A stretch of DNA of 64,000 nucleotides from Escherichia coli (GTDB lineage Bacteria; Pseudomonadota; Gammaproteobacteria; Enterobacterales; Enterobacteriaceae): NCBI RefSeq assembly GCF_003334765.1, contig NZ_QOWT01000013.1. The stretch is one strand, 5' to 3'. Below are positions 2,905 through 64,000 of this stretch, one piece after another (positions within the stretch are counted from its first letter, which is position 1; every line of letters begins with the position of its first letter). Position numbers and translations under genes: made by a program. The notes under the pieces were generated by a model that searched no databases, was not told where the DNA came from, and saw only the letters and a program-made list of their open reading frames with translations.

Positions 2905-3084
2905 GATAATCAAGTCTACAGGTCAATGTTATCGTTTATATGCACTTCTGGCGCACAAGAGGCACCTTAACCGCCCGTAAAGCAGACGTCAAGATGACTC
3001 AACCCCAGCAGTGACGGGGGCTGCAGAGAATCGCCCCCAATCATGCTAATTATTACGACAACTGATTTCCCCGAACTACTTCAT

Positions 3085-42575: not shown

Positions 42576-45020
42576 TTACACCTTTTCAACCTGAACAAGG
42601 TTTGTATGTGACGGATTCCCCTTAGCGAGAGGAGACGGACGTTGAGTGGTCAGTACGTTAATACAACCACCCTTATCGACACGTTTTGCATCCGGGTCAT
42701 ACCAGGCACCTTCACCCAGTGCGACCACACCCGGCATCATTCGTGGCGTCACTTTCGCCTCAATATGAACCTCACCACGATCGTTAAAGATCCTGACTTT
42801 ATCGCCGTTGTGGATACCGCGTTTTTGGGCATCAAGCGGGTTGATCCACATTTCCTGACGGCAAGCCGCTTTCAGCACATCAACGTTGCCGTAAGTTGAG
42901 TGAACGCGAGATTTATAGTGGAAACCTGTAAGCTGCAGCGGATACTGTTTGTTCAGCGGATCCTGATAACTTTCAAAGCCCGGCGTGTAGATCGGCAGTG
43001 GATCGATCACATCGCCTTCAGGCAATTCCCAGGTAGCGGCAATGTCAGCCAGCGCCTGCGAATAAATCTCAATTTTGCCCGATGGCGTAGTCAGTGGGTT
43101 TGCCTGCGGATCTTCACGGAAGGCTTTATAAGCAACGTGATGCCCTTGTGGGTCGCGCTTTTTAAAGATCCCCTGCTTGCGGAACTCTTCAAACGTTGGC
43201 AGTTCAGGAATCGCTTCCCGCGACTGGGCATACAGATGCCGCATCCACTCTTCCTGGGTACGGCCTTCAGTAAACTGTTGCTCAACGCCAAGACGTTTTG
43301 CCAGTTCGCTGGTCATTTCATAGATGGTCTTACATTCAAAGCGCGGTTTAATCACCTGATCGTTGAAAATCACGTAAGACATATTCCCGCAGGATGCATC
43401 CAGCGCAAAGTCCATCTGTTCGGAAGCGGTGCAGTCAGGCAGCAGGATGTCAGCATATTTCGCCGATGAGGTCATGTGGCAGTCGATAACCACAATCAGC
43501 TCGCACTTCTTATCATCCTGAAGGATTTCATGGGTACGGTTGATTTCAGAATGCTGGTTAATCAGGCAGTTACCGGCATAGTTCCAGATCATTTTGATCG
43601 GCACATCCAGCTTATCTTTCCCGCGTACACCATCACGCAGCGCCGTCATTTCCGGGCCACGTTCAATGGCATCGGTCCACATAAACATCGAAATGCTGGT
43701 CTGGATCGGGTTTTCCAAGGTCGGCATACGGACAAACGGTAAGCTGTATGAACCTTCACGCGCGCCGCTGTTGCCTCCGTTAATACCAACGTTACCGGTC
43801 AGAATCGCCAGCATCGAGATAGCACGGGTTGCGATTTCACCGTTAGCGTGACGCTGCGGGCCCCATCCCTGGCTGATAAACGCCGGTTTGGTACTACCGA
43901 TTTCACGAGCCAATTTGATGATTTTGTCTGCCGGAACACCAGTGATTTGCGAGGCCCATTCCGGCGTTTTAGCCACGCCATCTGGCCCTTCACCCAGAAT
44001 ATAAGCTTTATAGTGGCCATTTTTCGGCGCACTGGCTGGCAGGGTTTTCTCATCGTAGCCAACGCAATATTTATCGAGGAATGCCTGATCCACCAGGTTT
44101 TCAGTGATCATGACGTACGCCAGACCGTTAACCAGTGCGGCATCTGTTCCCGGACGAATAGGGATCCACTCATCTTCGCGCCCGGCACCGGTGTCGGTAT
44201 AGCGCGGATCGATGATGATCATGCGGGCATTAGATTTCTGGCGTGCCTGTTCAAGATAGTAAGTCACCCCACCGCCACTCATTCGCGTTTCGCCAGGGTT
44301 ATTACCAAACAGCACTACCAGCTTACTGTTTTCGATATCCGACGGGCTGTTGCCATCTGCCCAGCCGCCGTAGGTATAGTTCAAACCTTCCGCAATTTGC
44401 GCGGAGGAGTAGTCGCCGTAATGGTTCAGATAGCCGCCGCAGCAGTTCATCAGCCGCGCGACCAGGGTATTTCCCGGCGGCCAGGAGCGGGTCATGGTGC
44501 CGCCCAGCGTACCGGTGCCATAGTTCAGATAGATAGACTCGTTGCCGTACTCTTTGATCAGGCGCTGCATATTGGTCGCGATGATGTCGTAGGCTTCTTC
44601 CCAGCTAATGCGCTCGAATTTGCCTTCACCGCGCGCCCCGACTCGTTTCATCGGATATTTCAGGCGGTCCGGATTGTAGACACGGCGACGCATGGAACGC
44701 CCACGCAGGCAGGCGCGAACCTGGTGCAGGCCGTCGTAATTGTCATCGCCGGTATTGTCCGTTTCGACATATTTGATTTCACCGTCCACGACGTGCATAC
44801 GTAGCGGGCAGCGACTACCACAGTTAACTGTACAGGCGCTCCAGATAACCTTTTCGTCTGATTTTGTTGGAATGGCGCTATCGACAGCGTGCGCAATCCG
44901 ACTAAAAGGTAATGTTAATGCGCTGCTGGCCATTGCCAGGCCGCCGATCGCTGTCGTTTTTACCAAACCACGGCGACTCACCTCAGCAGCCAATACCGCA
45001 TCAGGGATTTTCGTTTTCAT
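42576..45020 (-). CDS. dmsA: DMSO reductase molybdopterin catalytic subunit
   Basis: 814-aa ORF with Tat signal (SRRGLVKTTAIGG). Confidence 0.96.
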   Translation of the reverse strand: MKTKIPDAVLAAEVSRRGLVKTTAIGGLAMASSALTLPFSRIAHAVDSAIPTKSDEKVIWSACTVNCGSRCPLRMHVVDGEIKYVETDNTGDDNYDGLHQVRACLRGRSMRRRVYNPDRLKYPMKRVGARGEGKFERISWEEAYDIIATNMQRLIKEYGNESIYLNYGTGTLGGTMTRSWPPGNTLVARLMNCCGGYLNHYGDYSSAQIAEGLNYTYGGWADGNSPSDIENSKLVVLFGNNPGETRMSGGGVTYYLEQARQKSNARMIIIDPRYTDTGAGREDEWIPIRPGTDAALVNGLAYVMITENLVDQAFLDKYCVGYDEKTLPASAPKNGHYKAYILGEGPDGVAKTPEWASQITGVPADKIIKLAREIGSTKPAFISQGWGPQRHANGEIATRAISMLAILTGNVGINGGNSGAREGSYSLPFVRMPTLENPIQTSISMFMWTDAIERGPEMTALRDGVRGKDKLDVPIKMIWNYAGNCLINQHSEINRTHEILQDDKKCELIVVIDCHMTSSAKYADILLPDCTASEQMDFALDASCGNMSYVIFNDQVIKPRFECKTIYEMTSELAKRLGVEQQFTEGRTQEEWMRHLYAQSREAIPELPTFEEFRKQGIFKKRDPQGHHVAYKAFREDPQANPLTTPSGKIEIYSQALADIAATWELPEGDVIDPLPIYTPGFESYQDPLNKQYPLQLTGFHYKSRVHSTYGNVDVLKAACRQEMWINPLDAQKRGIHNGDKVRIFNDRGEVHIEAKVTPRMMPGVVALGEGAWYDPDAKRVDKGGCINVLTTQRPSPLAKGNPSHTNLVQVEKV

Positions 45021-56783: not shown

Positions 56784-58505
56784 ATGCACGCTTTGCTACC
56801 CTATCTGGCACTGTATAAACGTCATAAATGGATGTTAAGTCTTGGTATTGTGCTGGCAATTGTGACGCTGCTCGCCAGTATCGGTCTGTTGACACTTTCC
56901 GGCTGGTTCCTCTCGGCCTCAGCGGTTGCGGGGGTTGCCGGACTGTACAGCTTCAACTATATGCTACCCGCTGCGGGCGTGCGTGGCGCAGCAATCACCC
57001 GTACTGCCGGGCGCTATTTTGAACGTCTGGTAAGTCACGACGCGACTTTCCGCGTGTTGCAGCATCTGCGCATTTACACCTTCAGCAAATTGCTGCCCCT
57101 CTCCCCTGCCGGACTGGCGCGCTATCGTCAGGGCGAATTGCTCAATCGCGTGGTGGCGGATGTTGATACGCTCGATCATCTTTACCTGCGCGTTATCTCG
57201 CCGCTGGTGGGCGCTTTTGTGGTGATTATGGTGGTGACAATCGGGTTAAGTTTCCTTGATTTCACCCTCGCCTTTACGCTGGGCGGCATTATGTTACTGA
57301 CGCTTTTCCTGATGCCACCGCTGTTTTATCGTGCGGGAAAAAGCACCGGGCAAAATCTGACTCATCTTCGCGGACAGTATCGCCAACAACTGACGGCCTG
57401 GCTGCAAGGGCAAGCTGAGCTGACCATTTTTGGTGCCAGCGATCGTTATCGCACGCAACTAGAGAATACAGAAATTCAATGGCTGGAAGCGCAACGCCGT
57501 CAATCTGAACTGACCGCATTGTCGCAAGCGATAATGCTGCTCATTGGCGCGTTAGCGGTGATCCTGATGCTGTGGATGGCGTCTGGCGGCGTTGGCGGCA
57601 ATGCTCAACCCGGCGCGTTAATTGCCCTGTTTGTCTTCTGCGCGTTAGCCGCGTTTGAAGCACTGGCACCAGTAACGGGTGCATTTCAGCATCTGGGGCA
57701 AGTCATTGCCTCTGCCGTACGTATCTCTGACTTAACGGATCAAAAACCGGAGGTCACCTTTCCTGATACCCAAACTCGTGTTGCCGATCGCGTTTCGCTG
57801 ACGTTACGGGATGTTCAGTTCACTTATCCGGAGCAATCTCAACAGGCACTTAAAGGGATTTCTCTTCAGGTAAACGCCGGGGAACATATAGCGATTCTCG
57901 GGCGAACCGGATGCGGCAAATCAACACTGTTACAACTGCTGACCCGCGCATGGGACCCGCAACAGGGCGAGATTTTGCTTAACGATAGCCCCATAGCCAG
58001 CCTGAATGAAGCGGCTCTACGACAGACCATCAGCGTTGTTCCTCAGCGAGTGCATCTGTTTAGCGCCACGCTGCGTGATAATCTTTTACTCGCCTCGCCT
58101 GGCAGTAGTGATGAGGCTCTGTCGGAGATCTTGCGTCGCGTTGGCCTGGAAAAGCTGCTCGAGGATGCAGGTCTCAACAGTTGGTTAGGTGAAGGCGGAC
58201 GCCAGCTCTCCGGTGGTGAACTGCGCCGTCTGGCTATCGCCCGTGCGCTGTTACATGATGCGCCACTGGTGTTGCTGGATGAACCTACCGAAGGCTTAGA
58301 TGCCACAACCGAAAGCCAGATCCTTGAATTGCTTGCAGAAATGATGCGTGAGAAAACGGTGTTAATGGTCACCCATCGACTTCGCGGACTCTCTCGTTTC
58401 CAACAAATAATAGTGATGGACAACGGGCAAATTATTGAGCAAGGTACTCACGCAGAACTGCTTGCCAGACAGGGGCGTTATTACCAGTTCAAGCAGGGTT
58501 TGTAA
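56784..58505 (+). CDS. cydC: cysteine/glutathione ABC exporter subunit CydC
   Basis: 573-aa ORF immediately abutting cydD; ABC ATPase (GRTGCGKST). Confidence 0.95.
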   Translation: MHALLPYLALYKRHKWMLSLGIVLAIVTLLASIGLLTLSGWFLSASAVAGVAGLYSFNYMLPAAGVRGAAITRTAGRYFERLVSHDATFRVLQHLRIYTFSKLLPLSPAGLARYRQGELLNRVVADVDTLDHLYLRVISPLVGAFVVIMVVTIGLSFLDFTLAFTLGGIMLLTLFLMPPLFYRAGKSTGQNLTHLRGQYRQQLTAWLQGQAELTIFGASDRYRTQLENTEIQWLEAQRRQSELTALSQAIMLLIGALAVILMLWMASGGVGGNAQPGALIALFVFCALAAFEALAPVTGAFQHLGQVIASAVRISDLTDQKPEVTFPDTQTRVADRVSLTLRDVQFTYPEQSQQALKGISLQVNAGEHIAILGRTGCGKSTLLQLLTRAWDPQQGEILLNDSPIASLNEAALRQTISVVPQRVHLFSATLRDNLLLASPGSSDEALSEILRRVGLEKLLEDAGLNSWLGEGGRQLSGGELRRLAIARALLHDAPLVLLDEPTEGLDATTESQILELLAEMMREKTVLMVTHRLRGLSRFQQIIVMDNGQIIEQGTHAELLARQGRYYQFKQGL

Positions 58506-58546
58506 GCTATTATTGAACGATCCGACTTGCGTGGAGTTTTGCGGTC

Positions 58547-59251
58547 ATGCGCCTGGTTCAGCTTTCTCGCCATTCAATAGCCTTCCCTTCCCCGGAAGGC
58601 GCATTACGTGAGCCTAACGGCCTGCTGGCACTTGGGGGCGATCTTAGCCCTGCGCGCCTGTTAATGGCTTACCAGCGTGGTATTTTTCCGTGGTTTTCTC
58701 CAGGCGACCCCATCCTCTGGTGGTCGCCCGATCCCCGCGCGGTGCTATGGCCAGAATCACTGCATATCAGCCGTAGTATGAAGCGATTTCATAAACGCTC
58801 GCCCTATCGTGTCACGATGAATTACGCTTTTGGTCAGGTCATTGAAGGCTGTGCCAGCGATCGCGAAGAAGGAACCTGGATCACGCGTGGCGTGGTCGAA
58901 GCCTACCATCGCCTTCACGAACTCGGCCATGCCCACTCCATTGAAGTCTGGCGTGAAGATGAGCTTGTCGGCGGTATGTACGGCGTGGCCCAGGGAACGC
59001 TATTTTGTGGCGAGTCCATGTTCAGCCGGATGGAAAATGCGTCTAAAACGGCGCTTCTGGTATTCTGTGAGGAATTTATCGGTCATGGCGGTAAGCTTAT
59101 CGACTGCCAGGTCCTTAACGATCACACAGCATCGCTTGGTGCCTGCGAAATTCCCCGCCGGGATTACCTTAATTATCTCAATCAAATGCGCCTCGGACGA
59201 TTGCCGAATAATTTCTGGGTACCACGATGCTTGTTTTCACCACAAGAATGA
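58547..59251 (+). CDS. aat: leucyl/phenylalanyl-tRNA--protein transferase
   Basis: 234-aa [20 protein letters not shown]. Confidence 0.95.
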
Positions 59252-59532
59252 ATGTTTTCGGCACATTTCTCCCCAGAGTGTTATAATTGCGGTCGCAGAG
59301 TTGGTTACGCTCATTACCCCGCTGCCGATAAGGAATTTTTCGCGTCAGGTAACGCCCATCGTTTATCTCACCGCTCCCTTATACGTTGCGCTTTTGGTGC
59401 GGCTTAGCCGTGTGTTTTCGGAGTAATGTGCCGAACCTGTTTGTTGCGATTTAGCGCGCAAATCTTTACTTATTTACAGAACTTCGGCATTATCTTGCCG
59501 GTTCAAATTACGGTAGTGATACCCCAGAGGAT

Positions 59533-59754
<222 letters not shown>

Positions 59755-59793
59755 TTGTTTTACCGCCTGATGGGCGAAGAGAAAGAACGAGTA

Positions 59794-59824
59794 AAAGGTC
59801 GGTTTAACCGGCCTTTTTATTTTG
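59794..59824 (+). terminator. Rho-independent terminator after infA
   Basis: Hairpin aaaggtcggtt-taa-accggccttt followed by tttattttg. Confidence 0.75.
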
Positions 59825-60007
59825 TGATATGTATGAAGTACTTTGGAAGTATAAGTCCGTAACTTGTCTCGATGTAGATATACTGCACAACTTGTTTACA
59901 GTATGAGCAAACAATAATTATCATTAAAATTCTTCTTGACCGTTTTACTCCAACTCCCTATAGTAGCGCCCCGTTGCCACCCATGAGGTTTGGTAGCAAA
60001 ACAATTT

Positions 60008-60095
60008 GGTGAGGTGTCCGAGTGGCTGAAGGAGCACGCCTGGAAAGTGTGTATACGGCAACGTATCGGGGGTTCGAATCCCCCCCTCACCGCCA
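60008..60095 (+). tRNA. serW: tRNA-Ser (anticodon GGA)
   Basis: 88-nt cloverleaf by hand: acceptor GGTGAGG/CCTCACC, anticodon loop CUGGAAA (GGA), long variable arm, T-loop GGTTCGAATCC, encoded 3' CCA. Confidence 0.93.
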
Positions 60096-60101
60096 GATTA
60101 T

Positions 60102-60136
60102 AAGCGTATATTATTGTTTGACATGCGCTTTTTTAT
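60102..60136 (+). terminator. putative terminator after tRNA-Ser
   Basis: Short stem aagcg...cgctt followed by ttttttatt; weak stem. Confidence 0.4.
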
Positions 60137-60245
60137 TCTCCCTTCCAGACAGTATGCCACCGGGTATGCCATCTGAAACCGGTTTATATAAGCCGCGATC
60201 ACATCTTATCGGACTATTTCCGATCTTTGAGCATACCGGGCAAAG

Positions 60246-61091
60246 CTATACTGCCAGCATGCCAGGATAGTGTCTGGCAATAATATCATTAAGCCTGTCA
60301 ACCAGTTCTGGTTTTCTGAACGTGATATGCGCGGAGCCCTTCTTAAAGTATCTGATGCTGAACATCTCATCTTCATAGCACGCTTTACCCTGAACAGACC
60401 GGATATGGTCATCCAGATGAATGATGATATTTTCCCGGTTGTCGGGGACTGGTTTGCCACTGAACAGATGCAGCATTCTTTCCAGGTCGGCAAGTCGGTC
60501 GGTCTGTTGTCCGCTGTTCAGATGAATCCCCCACCGGTCCCACCTCACCAGATTGTTGACGATAATTTTACTGCCAAATTTACAGGGTGAGTTGGTTTTG
60601 TAATTCCAGCTCAGCACTCTGAAGACGTTGATCACTCCTCGCTCAAACACGTCATCCTTATTCTGGTGCAGTTGCTCAAATGTGCTCCAAATGTTCGCTT
60701 CACTGATTTCCGGAAAGTTATCGTACTCCAGTGAGCGGTACCATGTATCACGGGCCTGCGCATCCATTAATGACAGCATCCCGGAACGTTGCATCAGGTC
60801 ACGCCAGATTTCGCGATCGAGATTGCGGGTGATGGCTTTCATTGCGGTTTCCGGTTTCTCCATGAGCCAGCAGCCGCAGCGAAAATCCTGTTTCATGGCC
60901 CAGTCCCGGGCGGTTTTACCGCCAATGCTTTCCGTCAGTACCGAGATTTCAGCCAGTTGCCGGATAAGTGTGTCGATTTGCAGCAGCGCACTCTTTCGTA
61001 CAGCCAGAATGTGGCGGATACTGGTTGAGCAGATAACGTCCGTATGTCCGTTGACCAGTTCCGGGCGGGAGATTGTGATATCTGACATCAT
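60246..61091 (-). CDS. hypothetical 281-aa island protein of unknown function (not a K-12 gene at this locus)
   Basis: Clean 281-aa ORF with AAGGA Shine-Dalgarno 8-9 nt upstream of ATGATG start; soluble, no TM or catalytic motif I can assign; may correspond to an uncharacterised family often annotated at the end of cbtA-type island modules, which I cannot verify. Confidence 0.6.
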   Translation of the reverse strand: MMSDITISRPELVNGHTDVICSTSIRHILAVRKSALLQIDTLIRQLAEISVLTESIGGKTARDWAMKQDFRCGCWLMEKPETAMKAITRNLDREIWRDLMQRSGMLSLMDAQARDTWYRSLEYDNFPEISEANIWSTFEQLHQNKDDVFERGVINVFRVLSWNYKTNSPCKFGSKIIVNNLVRWDRWGIHLNSGQQTDRLADLERMLHLFSGKPVPDNRENIIIHLDDHIRSVQGKACYEDEMFSIRYFKKGSAHITFRKPELVDRLNDIIARHYPGMLAV

Positions 61092-61112
61092 CGTTTTTCC
61101 TTTTGGTTTATA

Positions 61113-61143
61113 AACGAAAACGCCAGCCGTATTCAGGCTGGCG
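61113..61143 (-). terminator. Rho-independent terminator between the small-ORF operon and the 281-aa gene
   Basis: Minus-strand hairpin cgccagcc-tgaatac-ggctggcg followed by ttttcgttt. Confidence 0.65.
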
Positions 61144-61172
61144 TCAGTGGAATGAAGTCTGGTGAGTAAGAC

Positions 61173-61370
61173 TCACCTGTTCTGTTGCAGAAGCTGCTGT
61201 TGGCGCAGGGTACGGATATCTTCCCTGGCCTGTTCAATGCAGGGCAGCAGTGCTGCTGAATCCGTTTTATCCTCATCGGTGTCGAAGATAATCCCTGATT
61301 CGCAGTCAATATTGTCCTGCATCCACGCAATCAGAATATCCAGCGCCGTTTCTGTGGTTAATGATTTCAT
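61173..61370 (-). CDS. hypothetical small acidic protein (65 aa)
   Basis: Internal start MKSLTTETALDILIAWMQDN... of six-frame ORF 61173..61601; highly acidic (DNIDCESGIIFDTDEDKTD); start 16 nt after stop of the preceding 83-aa ORF. Confidence 0.45.
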   Translation of the reverse strand: MKSLTTETALDILIAWMQDNIDCESGIIFDTDEDKTDSAALLPCIEQAREDIRTLRQQQLLQQNR

Positions 61371-61386
61371 GTTGTGAATTTCCGGG

Positions 61387-61638
61387 TTACCAGTCGAAAG
61401 TGGGGAACCCCGGCAGACATTCTGCGCCGGCGTCCAGATGAATGAGACTGACGCCATAACGCCGGGTGAGAGTGACGACCAGACGACGGAACGTTCTTGA
61501 CAGGCCCAGGCGTTTAAGCCGCAGAACCGGGTACGACCATGCATCGGTACGTAACAGATACCAGTCGCGGGCTTTTTCCCGTACGGTGGAGGATAGCTCA
61601 TGCAGTGTATACACGGTGGTGGTGATAATTCTGCTCAT
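61387..61638 (-). CDS. hypothetical small basic protein (83 aa)
   Basis: ORF starts 18 nt downstream of the YeeT-like gene; Arg-rich; overlaps an alternative-frame 142-aa ORF so the coding frame is uncertain. Confidence 0.4.
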   Translation of the reverse strand: MSRIITTTVYTLHELSSTVREKARDWYLLRTDAWSYPVLRLKRLGLSRTFRRLVVTLTRRYGVSLIHLDAGAECLPGFPTFDW

Positions 61639-61656
61639 CTGAATGCCCTTACTGAC

Positions 61657-61878
61657 TCAGTTCAGGGTGACGTTCATCAGCCGGACATACGGGCCAAAAC
61701 TGTCCTTACGGCGTTCAGCAAACACGGCCAGCACACCGGGAATATCCTGCACTTCACGACCGGTATACGTCTCAGCACTGCCGTGCCAGCGGTACTTACC
61801 GGTGCAGAACGGAAATAGACGGGGTGCAGGATGCTGTTGGTGAATACGCATGGCTTCACCACGGGTGATAATTTTCAT
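61657..61878 (-). CDS. YeeT/DUF987-family small protein
   Basis: 73-aa ORF MKIITRGEAMRIHQQHP... matching my recollection of the YeeT-type protein that precedes cbeA/cbtA modules in CP4-like islands. Confidence 0.7.
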   Translation of the reverse strand: MKIITRGEAMRIHQQHPAPRLFPFCTGKYRWHGSAETYTGREVQDIPGVLAVFAERRKDSFGPYVRLMNVTLN

Positions 61879-61940
61879 AATGGGATACCTCTGAAGACAG
61901 AAGATAAAAGTGAAAACAGGTGTGATGTGGTTGTGACGGG

Positions 61941-62417
61941 TTAAAGCAGACCATGTTCGGCAAAGGAGAAAACCTGGTTGCCACCGACTATCAGATGGTC
62001 CGGCACCCGGATATCCACCAGGCCCAGTGCCTGTACCAGACGTTCGGTGATAAGCCGGTCTGCCTTACTGGGTGTGACTTCACCGGACGGGTGATTGTGT
62101 GCCAGTACCACGGCAGCGGCATTGTGGTACAGGGCGCGTTTAATCACTTCCCGGGGATGGACTTCCGTGCGGTTGATGGTGCCGGTGAAGAGGGTTTCAC
62201 CGGCAATCAGCTGATTCTGGTTGTTCAGATACAGCACCCGGAATTCTTCACGCTCCAGTCCCGCCATGTTCAGAATCAGCCATTCCCGTGCTGCACGGGT
62301 GGAGGTGAAGGCCACGCCGGGTTCATGAAGATGGCGGTCCAGGGTTTTCAGGGCCCGTTGAATGAGGCTGCGCTCGCCGGGCGTCATCTCTCCGGGCAGA
62401 AAGGAAAGTTGTTGCAT
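61941..62417 (-). CDS. RadC-like JAB-domain protein (YeeS/YfjY/YkfG family)
   Basis: JAMM motif HNHPSG; start chosen at MQQLSFLPGE preceded by GGAGG SD (alternative ATG at 62432 overlaps antirestriction stop). Confidence 0.85.
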   Translation of the reverse strand: MQQLSFLPGEMTPGERSLIQRALKTLDRHLHEPGVAFTSTRAAREWLILNMAGLEREEFRVLYLNNQNQLIAGETLFTGTINRTEVHPREVIKRALYHNAAAVVLAHNHPSGEVTPSKADRLITERLVQALGLVDIRVPDHLIVGGNQVFSFAEHGLL

Positions 62418-62432
62418 TGTCCCTGCCTCCAT

Positions 62433-62906
62433 TCAGTCGATGATGCGCATAATGGCGCTGCATTCCGGATGCTGCAGGGCGTAATCCCGCAGCCGGTAAT
62501 AATGAACCGTCATGGCATAATTCTCTGTACGACAGGCGTGATGGCTGTACGCCATCAGACAGGCGGCAATGCCGGCGGCTTCCGGGCTCATTTCAGCGCG
62601 GTTACCGTTCATGACGTTAAACAGCACCCATGTTTCGTCATCATCGTCATCCGGTTCGGGTGCCATAAATGCGCCACCGTTGTTCAGGGTGTACAGATTC
62701 CAGATACCACCGCAGTAGTCTTCGCACAGACGGTCCATCCAGCCGAAGACACGGGGCTCCAGGGTCACCCACTGTGGAATGAGGCCAAAGTGCTGCGGCC
62801 AGAAGCTGATGCGCTGTTCATCAGGGACGAGGGTGGCAACCAGTTGTTGCAGGTCAGTCTCCGGTGCACAGGCCGAAGAGGTGGTGTTCTGAGACAATGT
62901 TTTCAT
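62433..62906 (-). CDS. antirestriction protein (KlcA/ArdB-like, YfjX/YeeR family)
   Basis: Internal start MKTLSQNTTSS... (158 aa) within six-frame ORF 62433..63287; the 5' extension overlaps the upstream DUF932-like gene and is taken as non-coding. Confidence 0.8.
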   Translation of the reverse strand: MKTLSQNTTSSACAPETDLQQLVATLVPDEQRISFWPQHFGLIPQWVTLEPRVFGWMDRLCEDYCGGIWNLYTLNNGGAFMAPEPDDDDDETWVLFNVMNGNRAEMSPEAAGIAACLMAYSHHACRTENYAMTVHYYRLRDYALQHPECSAIMRIID

Positions 62907-63247
62907 GTATGAAATCCTTGTAATGTGAATAAATGAGAGGGAGTAAAGGTCGGGAGCTGGCAACATCACGTTCATCACTGACCGTGATGACCCGGTAATA
63001 TCAGGGATGAATGATATTCGGCTGAAATTCCGGACAGCCGTACGCGTAACCGTTCCGGTCACAGACGGATGGCCAGATGCCATTGCCTGTATACTCAGTC
63101 TGCACAGACTGATTTCTCCGGGACGGTAAAACAGACGGGTACACCAGGCGCACAGGTCATCATCAGAAATGGAACGACACCCCGGCAGCGCCTCCGGGGC
63201 GTCGGGTGATTCTGGTGCCTGAATCACGCCTTCAGGGACATGCTGCA

Positions 63248-64000
63248 TCAGCGCAGGCTCTCCAGCAGCATTTCTGCCATTACCCACAATGCGCGGTTGA
63301 GCTTAATATCGGTGTCGATGTTGTGAATGGCACGGGTGTGGATACGTTTTCCTTTTGCACTGCGGCCGGAAATCCCGCCTTTCAGCATATTCTCCTGGAT
63401 GGTCTGATAAGTACTCCACAGGTCCTTACCGTAATCCTCCCGGCGTCGTGGCGTCAGAATGTCGGCGGTGGTGACGGGCCGATGTTCGTCACCATAACGG
63501 TAAGTCAGTGCCGCCTGTGCCAGCTCCTGGCGTTCCGGTGGCGGCAGGACCAGCGACTGCATGGCATCACGCTTCTCCTCTATCCGGTCAAACACGCCCA
63601 CCACCTCGTAAGCCCCTTCGATAACTTTCTCCACTACATTTCCCCGGTGTGGAACACGCACTTCCCCCAGAGACTGGCCACAGACGCACCCGTTCTGGCA
63701 GACGAACCTGAAGTAACCCGGCAGCATCTGGTAGCTGGAGGTACCGTCATGAGAGTTGAGCAGAATAATTTCAGGGACATGTTCTCCGTTTATCTCTCCG
63801 GCCCGCCGCAGACGCAGCATGTGTTTTGTGTATCCCCGGCGGCCCGGGTCGCGCACGCGGGTCTGGCAGGCGAAGAATGGCTGAAAACCTTCCTGCTGCA
63901 GGCTTTCCAGTACGGTGATGGTGGGAATGTACGCATATCGTTTACTGCGGGAAGTATGCCGGTCTTCACCGAAAATACTGGGAACATAGTGCATCAGTTC
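63248..64000 (-). CDS. DUF932-family island protein (YafZ/YfjQ-like), 5' end probably beyond window
   Basis: ORF 63248..63994 (248 aa from first visible Met MHYVPSIFGEDRH); K-12 homologues as I recall them are about 273 aa with about 24 residues N-terminal to this motif, so likely truncated by the window edge. Confidence 0.6.
   Translation of the reverse strand, partial: ELMHYVPSIFGEDRHTSRSKRYAYIPTITVLESLQQEGFQPFFACQTRVRDPGRRGYTKHMLRLRRAGEINGEHVPEIILLNSHDGTSSYQMLPGYFRFVCQNGCVCGQSLGEVRVPHRGNVVEKVIEGAYEVVGVFDRIEEKRDAMQSLVLPPPERQELAQAALTYRYGDEHRPVTTADILTPRRREDYGKDLWSTYQTIQENMLKGGISGRSAKGKRIHTRAIHNIDTDIKLNRALWVMAEMLLESLR

Follow-up and report, generated by a model that had tools for sequence, protein, structure and literature searches.

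The last part of a 64,000-nucleotide stretch of Escherichia coli DNA (contig NZ_QOWT01000013.1; this whole stretch is referred to as the window) lies in a CP4-like genomic island, where a 281-amino-acid (aa) DUF4942 gene is preceded by a GC-rich hairpin and a U-rich tract positioned just ahead of its Shine-Dalgarno (SD) sequence. The hairpin is a conserved leader element of DUF4942, and with a probability of roughly 0.6 it acts as a Rho-independent terminator that both closes the upstream operon and attenuates expression in the DUF4942 leader, with DUF4942 being made from read-through transcripts. It would thus end the antirestriction-RadC-DUF987-(CbeA-CbtA)-DUF5983-DUF957 unit of the island, with most polymerases predicted to stop at ∼61112-61110. 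The fraction that reads through would bear a good SD (AAGGA, with a 6-nt spacer) and be translated, such that DUF4942 is held at a low, fixed fraction of the level of the upstream genes. Its role as a constitutive attenuator is suggested because the hairpin is only 16 nt before the ribosome binding site (RBS) with no promoter between. Termination in vivo, its partial nature, and read-through as the sole source of DUF4942 mRNA are inferences, as are the efficiency of termination and the position of the promoter feeding the unit. In these terms, the hairpin is a new, well-supported example of a textbook, ordinary gene-dosage mechanism.

Hairpin, U-tract, and Shine-Dalgarno sequence

Seven of the 10 stem pairs at 61145..61119 are G-C, and the two basal pairs are G.U and A-U (Table 1). 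Six of the first 8 nt past the GC core are U, and the opposite strand has no T-tract. Together, the GC-rich stem (∼5 to 12 bp being the norm), short loop, one-sided U-tract, and compensatory pairing described below are those of an intrinsic terminator. RNAfold predicts −18.4 kcal/mol for the 27-nt hairpin and −15.4 kcal/mol for its GC core, and the 96-nt intergenic stretch has a folding z score of −4.39, with 1 of 200 shuffles folding as well. The hairpin is present in a single copy within the window, and in a consensus scan of 58000-64000 it ranks as the second-strongest terminator-like site; this loose scan is not significant overall (11 sites versus 5.6 expected). A d'Aubenton-Carafa-type score of +16 puts it in the terminator class and below classic strong terminators scored in the same manner, and its predicted strength is intermediate, not exceptional.

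A preliminary description of this DNA drew attention to a strong terminator hairpin with a T-tract about 20 bp upstream of the SD of the 281-aa gene. The hairpin and T-tract are indeed there, the range given for them (61113-61143) corresponding to the GC core plus the T-tract, and the distance is also sound: the end of the stem is 16 nt from the SD and 27 nt from the ATGATG at 61091 with which DUF4942 starts. As to its being a strong terminator, the type holds, with an intrinsic-terminator hairpin on the coding strand, and the strength does so only in part, given the score of +16. The same description saw almost no room for a promoter, and no sigma-70-like promoter can be fitted into, or is conserved across, the 16 to 27 nt leading to the SD and ATG. 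In the window, a consensus scan detects no promoter-like sequence from the hairpin to the SD, nor any at the scan threshold within the upstream small open reading frames (ORFs), and the only element between hairpin and ATG that is common to all lineages is the GGA(G) of the SD. With no promoter past the hairpin, every DUF4942 transcript must cross it.

A second, small perfect hairpin (GGUGAGUCUUACUCACC) just upstream is seen in E. coli and Escherichia albertii copies and is absent from other genera. A 10-codon ORF (61144-61176, minus strand) has a GTG that overlaps the DUF957 stop codon as GTGA and a TGA (61146-61144) that reaches the first bases of the terminator stem; this ORF is kept only in close Escherichia copies. 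An Rfam scan of 59500-64000 at an E value of ≤1 gives a tRNA as the sole match and nothing at the hairpin.

Conservation and linkage to DUF4942

A scan for DUF4942 relatives using one genome per species identified 60 loci in ∼25 Enterobacterales genera, and it is mainly the comparison with these related loci that makes the hairpin more than a chance occurrence. A hairpin with a T-rich tail is present in 45 of 49 distinct DUF4942 upstream regions, with the stem ending 17 to 30 nt before the ATG. Across 42 related loci of 6.8 kb each, a strict scan for perfect-stem terminators scores 35 hits within the 100 nt preceding the DUF4942 match, against no more than 4 in each of the other 100-nt bins. 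The antirestriction-to-DUF957 block of a full-length E. coli island lies between strong terminators at 42881 and 46702, with DUF4942 beyond the second of these.

The stems are varied in sequence, with at least eight types (GCGCCAGCC, GACGCCAAC, CCTGCCTGCG, GGCCCGCA, GCGCCTGCC, GCGCCATCC, CGCCGGTC, and CACCCGTC), some of which are unrelated to each other yet are at the same position. Compensatory changes are evident among them, for example GCGCCAGCC/GGCUGGCGC, GCGCCAUCC/GGAUGGCGC, and GGCCCGCA/UGCGGGCC compared with GACCCGCA/UGCGGGUC, and the Trabulsiella/Yokenella group has a compensatory G-C to A-U change together with wobble changes in the stem. In an unfitted MAFFT alignment of the stems, 84.7% of cells are paired, compared to 29 to 48% when the registers are slid by 1 to 3 columns; changes on both sides occur in 7 of 11 pairs (29 cells), and the covariation score is reached by none of 500 shuffles. 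A model-fitted alignment gives similar pairing and covariation numbers. The acceptance of G.U pairs among homologous stems, together with the one-sided T-tract, points to an RNA element and not a DNA palindrome, and favours termination.

The gene just upstream of the hairpin varies by lineage and may be DUF957, CbtA, CbeA, or DUF5983, and in Lelliottia (L024) and Trabulsiella (L025) loci cargo on the opposite strand is directly upstream, with the hairpin and T-tract still preceding the SD. The distance from the hairpin to the upstream stop codon is variable (∼20 to 130 nt), whereas that to the DUF4942 start is constrained to the 17 to 30 nt noted above. Distant DUF4942 homologues (33 to 41% identity), found on plasmid-like contigs, lack the terminator and are preceded by ordinary promoters, suggesting that gating is a maintained trait of this island family and not of the protein family. 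From these sequence comparisons, the hairpin belongs with the downstream DUF4942 gene rather than with the upstream ORFs. The preliminary description had it terminating transcripts of a small-ORF operon; a co-directional unit is present, and it is really the tail of a longer antirestriction-to-DUF957 unit without cbeA and cbtA, and the hairpin is instead tied to DUF4942, persisting as the upstream neighbours change. That earlier account is partly supported and largely right, with this refinement.

Enterobacterial island sequence also occurs in assemblies labelled as unrelated taxa, including Chryseobacterium sp. 18061 (L031, L041, and L057) and a Collinsella metagenome-assembled genome (L049 and L056), as well as in L050 and L059. 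Protein identity to E. coli is 85 to 94% in L049, L050, L056, and L059 and ∼61 to 63% in the three Chryseobacterium-labelled loci; the taxon labels of all of these probably reflect contamination or mis-binning.

Recurrence at other junctions and alternative explanations

A covariance model of the hairpin element also matches further junctions in these islands. The CGCCAGCC..GGCUGGCG hairpin (also found as CGCCAGCC..GGCTGGCG), with its U-tract and SD, recurs as a terminator-plus-RBS junction element and is present before antirestriction genes (L028 240-305, L034 1130-1192, and L046 895-958), before K-12 lfgA/yfjX (L063 3872-3904; NC_000913 2,775,871-2,775,903) and yafX, and before CbeA-like genes (L010, L013, and L020, at ∼2250-2534). 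This recurrence could result from duplication or gene conversion, from module shuffling at hairpins, or from the action of a sequence-specific factor. A bolder proposal, and a distinctly unlikely one, is that this hairpin is a dedicated cis-element of CP4-like islands, located within 30 nt of the RBSs of DUF4942, antirestriction (including K-12 lfgA and yafX), and CbeA-like genes, which would be co-switched by an antitermination mechanism using either a factor or a coupled ribosome; if true, entry into a new host or activation of the island might be among the triggers.

The K-12 cryptic prophages CP4-44, CP4-57, and CP4-6 (yeeS-yeeT-cbeA-cbtA-yeeW; lfgA/yfjX; yafX) carry a gene module homologous to that in the window, with K-12 having lost the DUF4942 body and the window having lost cbeA and cbtA. 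In CP4-44, the hairpin is kept with one mismatch, along with the T-tract and SD (L062 5290-5316; NC_000913 2,078,289-2,078,315); it sits after a DUF957 fragment downstream of yeeW, and the deletion of the DUF4942 body begins immediately past the start region. This remnant is a ready K-12 model for testing termination.

Conditional antitermination offers a different account of the hairpin, in which an efficient terminator keeps DUF4942 off (and, in some islands, the antirestriction and CbeA-like genes likewise) until bypass is allowed by an island-, phage-, or plasmid-encoded factor or by a ribosome stalled on the 10-codon ORF. The occurrence of the same hairpin, U-tract, and SD before antirestriction and CbeA-like genes is consistent with this, as are the arm sequences, which are more conserved than a generic terminator needs, the retention of the hairpin in the leader when the upstream gene is divergent, and the Escherichia 10-codon ORF, coupled to the DUF957 stop by GTGA and ending on the first stem bases. 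In having a hairpin and U-tract directly before the SD, and in Escherichia a short ORF ending at the base of the stem, the DUF4942 leader does resemble regulated leader terminators such as riboswitch platforms, the BglG/SacY RAT (ribonucleic antiterminator) and ANTAR systems, and the trp and his leader peptides. Unlike these, however, it has no conserved antiterminator or aptamer, whether as alternative structure or as sequence, upstream across contexts, and no Rfam match. A stop codon is 0 to 2 nt before the stem in 26 of 42 hairpins, but the remaining 16 have no adjacent stop, and the frequent UAA is explained by an A-rich 5′ extension pairing with the U-tract. Ribosome-mediated attenuation through the 10-codon ORF is a weak lead. 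There is also room for a promoter in the 120 to 170 nt before the antirestriction gene in most islands. A parallel can be drawn with lambda tR1, tL1, and tR′ and with RfaH/ops, where terminators inside long mobile-element operons gate distal genes, but the searches turned up no nut-, put-, or ops-like element, and none of the island genes was recognized as an antiterminator; searching for the RfaH ops element GGCGGTAGnnTG gave one-mismatch matches at chance level, none of them in a leader. An RfaH/ops-dependent operon was set aside for this reason, and a regulated attenuator or riboswitch leader because the upstream sequence differs by context and has no Rfam match at an E value of ≤1. Taken together, conditional antitermination is unlikely here.

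An independent promoter could instead overlap the terminator, with a −35 CTGAAT in the loop, an 18-nt spacer, and a −10 TATAAA at 61112..61107, in which case DUF4942 transcription would start just before the SD and the hairpin would serve the upstream operon only. Terminator-overlapping promoters are known in principle, and a TATAAA hexamer does follow the T-tract in the window, as does TATATAAA in many relatives. However, the −35 fits at three of six positions and lies in freely varying stem and loop sequence, the site is under the scan threshold, and TATAAA is missing from other Escherichia copies (TTTATCTGCG) and from Yersinia, Serratia, and Trabulsiella lineages (TTTTATGGAG and TTTCTAAGGAAC); moreover, a start 7 nt past TATAAA in the main family would land inside or after the conserved SD. 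This candidate is very unlikely and was rejected as weak and not conserved. The hairpin might also be an RNA stability or processing element, shielding the upstream mRNA at its 3′ end or defining a small RNA (sRNA) derived from the 3′ untranslated region (UTR) with two hairpins and a U tail, the effect on DUF4942 being a by-product. The two-hairpin and U-tail layout after the Escherichia DUF957 stop recalls 3′-UTR sRNAs, and terminator hairpins generally stabilize 3′ ends, but the first hairpin (GGUGAGUCUUACUCACC) is Escherichia-specific, there is no Rfam family match, the conserved spacing is to the downstream start and not to the upstream stop, and the hairpin is retained without a co-directional upstream gene, making such a role quite improbable. 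A role at the DNA level, either as a palindromic operator for a dimeric regulator or as a recombination or module-junction site, is the hardest to credit and seems extremely improbable: the same palindrome is at several module borders, cargo insertions lie immediately 5′ of the hairpin, and some loci have the 3′ arm alone (L008 and L023) or lack the hairpin cleanly (L018 and L055), but on the coding strand the hairpin always has a one-sided T-tract after it, G.U wobble pairing is tolerated, stems of several unrelated sequences are found at this position, no attC-like or other recombination core is present, and the hairpin is not repeated elsewhere in the window. A repetitive extragenic palindromic (REP) or bacterial interspersed mosaic element (BIME)-like repeat was also considered and rejected, as the hairpin is single copy both in the 64-kb window and in a 48-kb island and recurs only at junctions inside this island family.

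Several observations weigh against a terminator-attenuator that sets DUF4942 levels by read-through. The T-tract is interrupted (UUUUCG), the termination efficiency is a guess from a heuristic score, and the promoter feeding the unit was not located within the window. The texts and supplements searched contain no published 3′- or 5′-end mapping for this junction, a near-identical copy, or the K-12 remnants, and the 3′-end supplements of Adams et al. 2021 have no entry for yeeW, coordinates beginning 20783, yfjX, ypjI, yafX, cbeA, or yeeS; yoeF appears there once, for an antisense 3′ end (2,078,833, minus strand) that is unrelated to the hairpin. The hairpin is cleanly absent from two Hafnia alvei loci (L018 and L055), between GCATAA and ATAAAAGGA, and only the 3′ arm is retained in two rearranged loci (L008, ∼2955-3001; L023, ∼2960-3000), such that the DUF4942 gene can exist without it; the four loci suggest breakpoints at or within the hairpin. 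Part of the conservation could also stem from common descent of a syntenic block and not from selection, but the presence of unrelated stem sequences at the same position argues against this.

The terminator-attenuator proposed here has counterparts in the E. coli rpsU-dnaG T1 terminator and the rplL-rpoB attenuator, which are intra-operon intrinsic terminators that set gene dosage. As in those systems, a Rho-independent terminator is located between co-directional genes, the distal gene has no promoter of its own past the terminator and would depend on read-through, and the ratio of distal to proximal expression would be low. The DUF4942 hairpin differs in that only 16 nt separate it from the RBS, it belongs to a mobile island, and it is conserved with the downstream gene even if the upstream gene changes or is divergent.

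Island organization and the DUF4942 protein

Near the end of the window, the chromosomal genes cydC, aat, and infA and the tRNA-Ser(GGA) gene serW are followed by the genomic island, all genes of which in this region are on the minus strand. Features are listed in Table 1, with gene identities from Pfam, NCBIfam, and the RefSeq annotation of strain LSN03-016011/A, whose island at serX is 99% identical and carries the intact junction at 4,424,674-4,424,757 of NZ_CP035884.

Table 1. Features at the DUF4942 end of the island
Feature	Coordinates	Strand	Basis
tRNA-Ser (GGA), serW; island boundary, convergent with DUF4942	60008..60095	+	Rfam tRNA match
DUF4942 gene, 281 aa, last island gene; RefSeq start is the second ATG (280 aa)	60246..61091	-	Pfam PF13708, E value 2.5e-68
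Shine-Dalgarno AAGGA, 6 nt before the first DUF4942 ATG	61102..61098	-	
U-rich tract UUUUCGUUUAU (DNA TTTTCGTTTAT); first two U double as the last two stem bases	61120..61110	-	
Terminator stem-loop GACGCCAGCC/UGAAUAC/GGCUGGCGUU (DNA 3′ arm GGCTGGCGTT, loop TGAATAC), 10 bp, 7-nt loop	61145..61119	-	
Small perfect hairpin GGUGAGUCUUACUCACC overlapping the DUF957 stop codon (UGA, 61175..61173)	61161..61177	-	
DUF957 small gene, 67 aa here, final ORF before the terminator	61173..61376	-	RefSeq annotation of 99% identical locus
83-aa ORF, C-terminal half of DUF5983, deletion leftover	61387..61638	-	Comparison with near-identical island
DUF987 (YeeT-like) gene, in the co-directional unit	61657..61878	-	RefSeq annotation of near-identical island
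RadC/JAB-domain gene, in the antirestriction-to-DUF957 unit	61941..62432	-	NCBIfam and RefSeq annotation
Antirestriction (ArdB/KlcA-like) gene, 157 aa, first gene of the unit	62433..62906	-	RefSeq annotation
Upstream terminator-like hairpin, 11 bp, 9 G-C, right after DUF932, ∼270 nt 5′ of the antirestriction gene	63175..63204	-	
DUF932 gene	63994..63248	-	

Relative to a 97 to 99% identical island (L001; serX), the window lacks 1,761 bp; this deletion, whose junction is at 61559/61560, took out cbtA, cbeA, and the N-terminal half of DUF5983 and left the 83-aa fusion ORF. The small-ORF operon of the window is therefore a deleted version of the antirestriction–RadC–DUF987–(CbeA–CbtA)–DUF5983–DUF957 operon, a truncated tail of a CP4-44/CP4-57-type module. 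The strong terminator-like hairpin following DUF932 probably marks the start of the transcription unit that the DUF4942-proximal hairpin closes, and no promoter was found at the scan threshold in the gap between it and the antirestriction gene.

The DUF4942 protein has no NCBIfam or PADLOC match, and no sequence relative was found in the PDB; against PHROGs, the sole match is to the N-terminal accessory part of a family labelled as phage 'DNA methyltransferase'. AlphaFold models are poor with 10 sequences (predicted local distance difference test [pLDDT] score, 55) and good with 91 (pLDDT, 88), and no solved structural relative of the latter was found. Within the searched literature, only four papers mention DUF4942, each in passing. 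CP4-like modules containing antirestriction, RadC, CbtA/CbeA, DUF957, and DUF4942 genes form the ends of thousands of enterobacterial pathogenicity and fitness islands, and hardly any work has addressed how they are regulated. The conserved terminator would place DUF4942 in the same transcription unit as the toxin-antitoxin and antirestriction genes and implies that its dose is deliberately held down. The hairpin needs to be reckoned with in any functional study or expression construct of DUF4942 and is a simple, testable handle on when this widespread gene is expressed.

A near-identical island end is at serW in the window and at serX, an identical tRNA gene, in other strains (L001/L064). It is the DUF4942 end of the island, and not an integrase, that abuts the 3′ end of the tRNA. 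With 60000-61700 as the query, 1,308 complete genomes show a coverage of at least 80%. E. coli Sakai has no island at serW, and the serW junction is common to 274 complete E. coli genomes.
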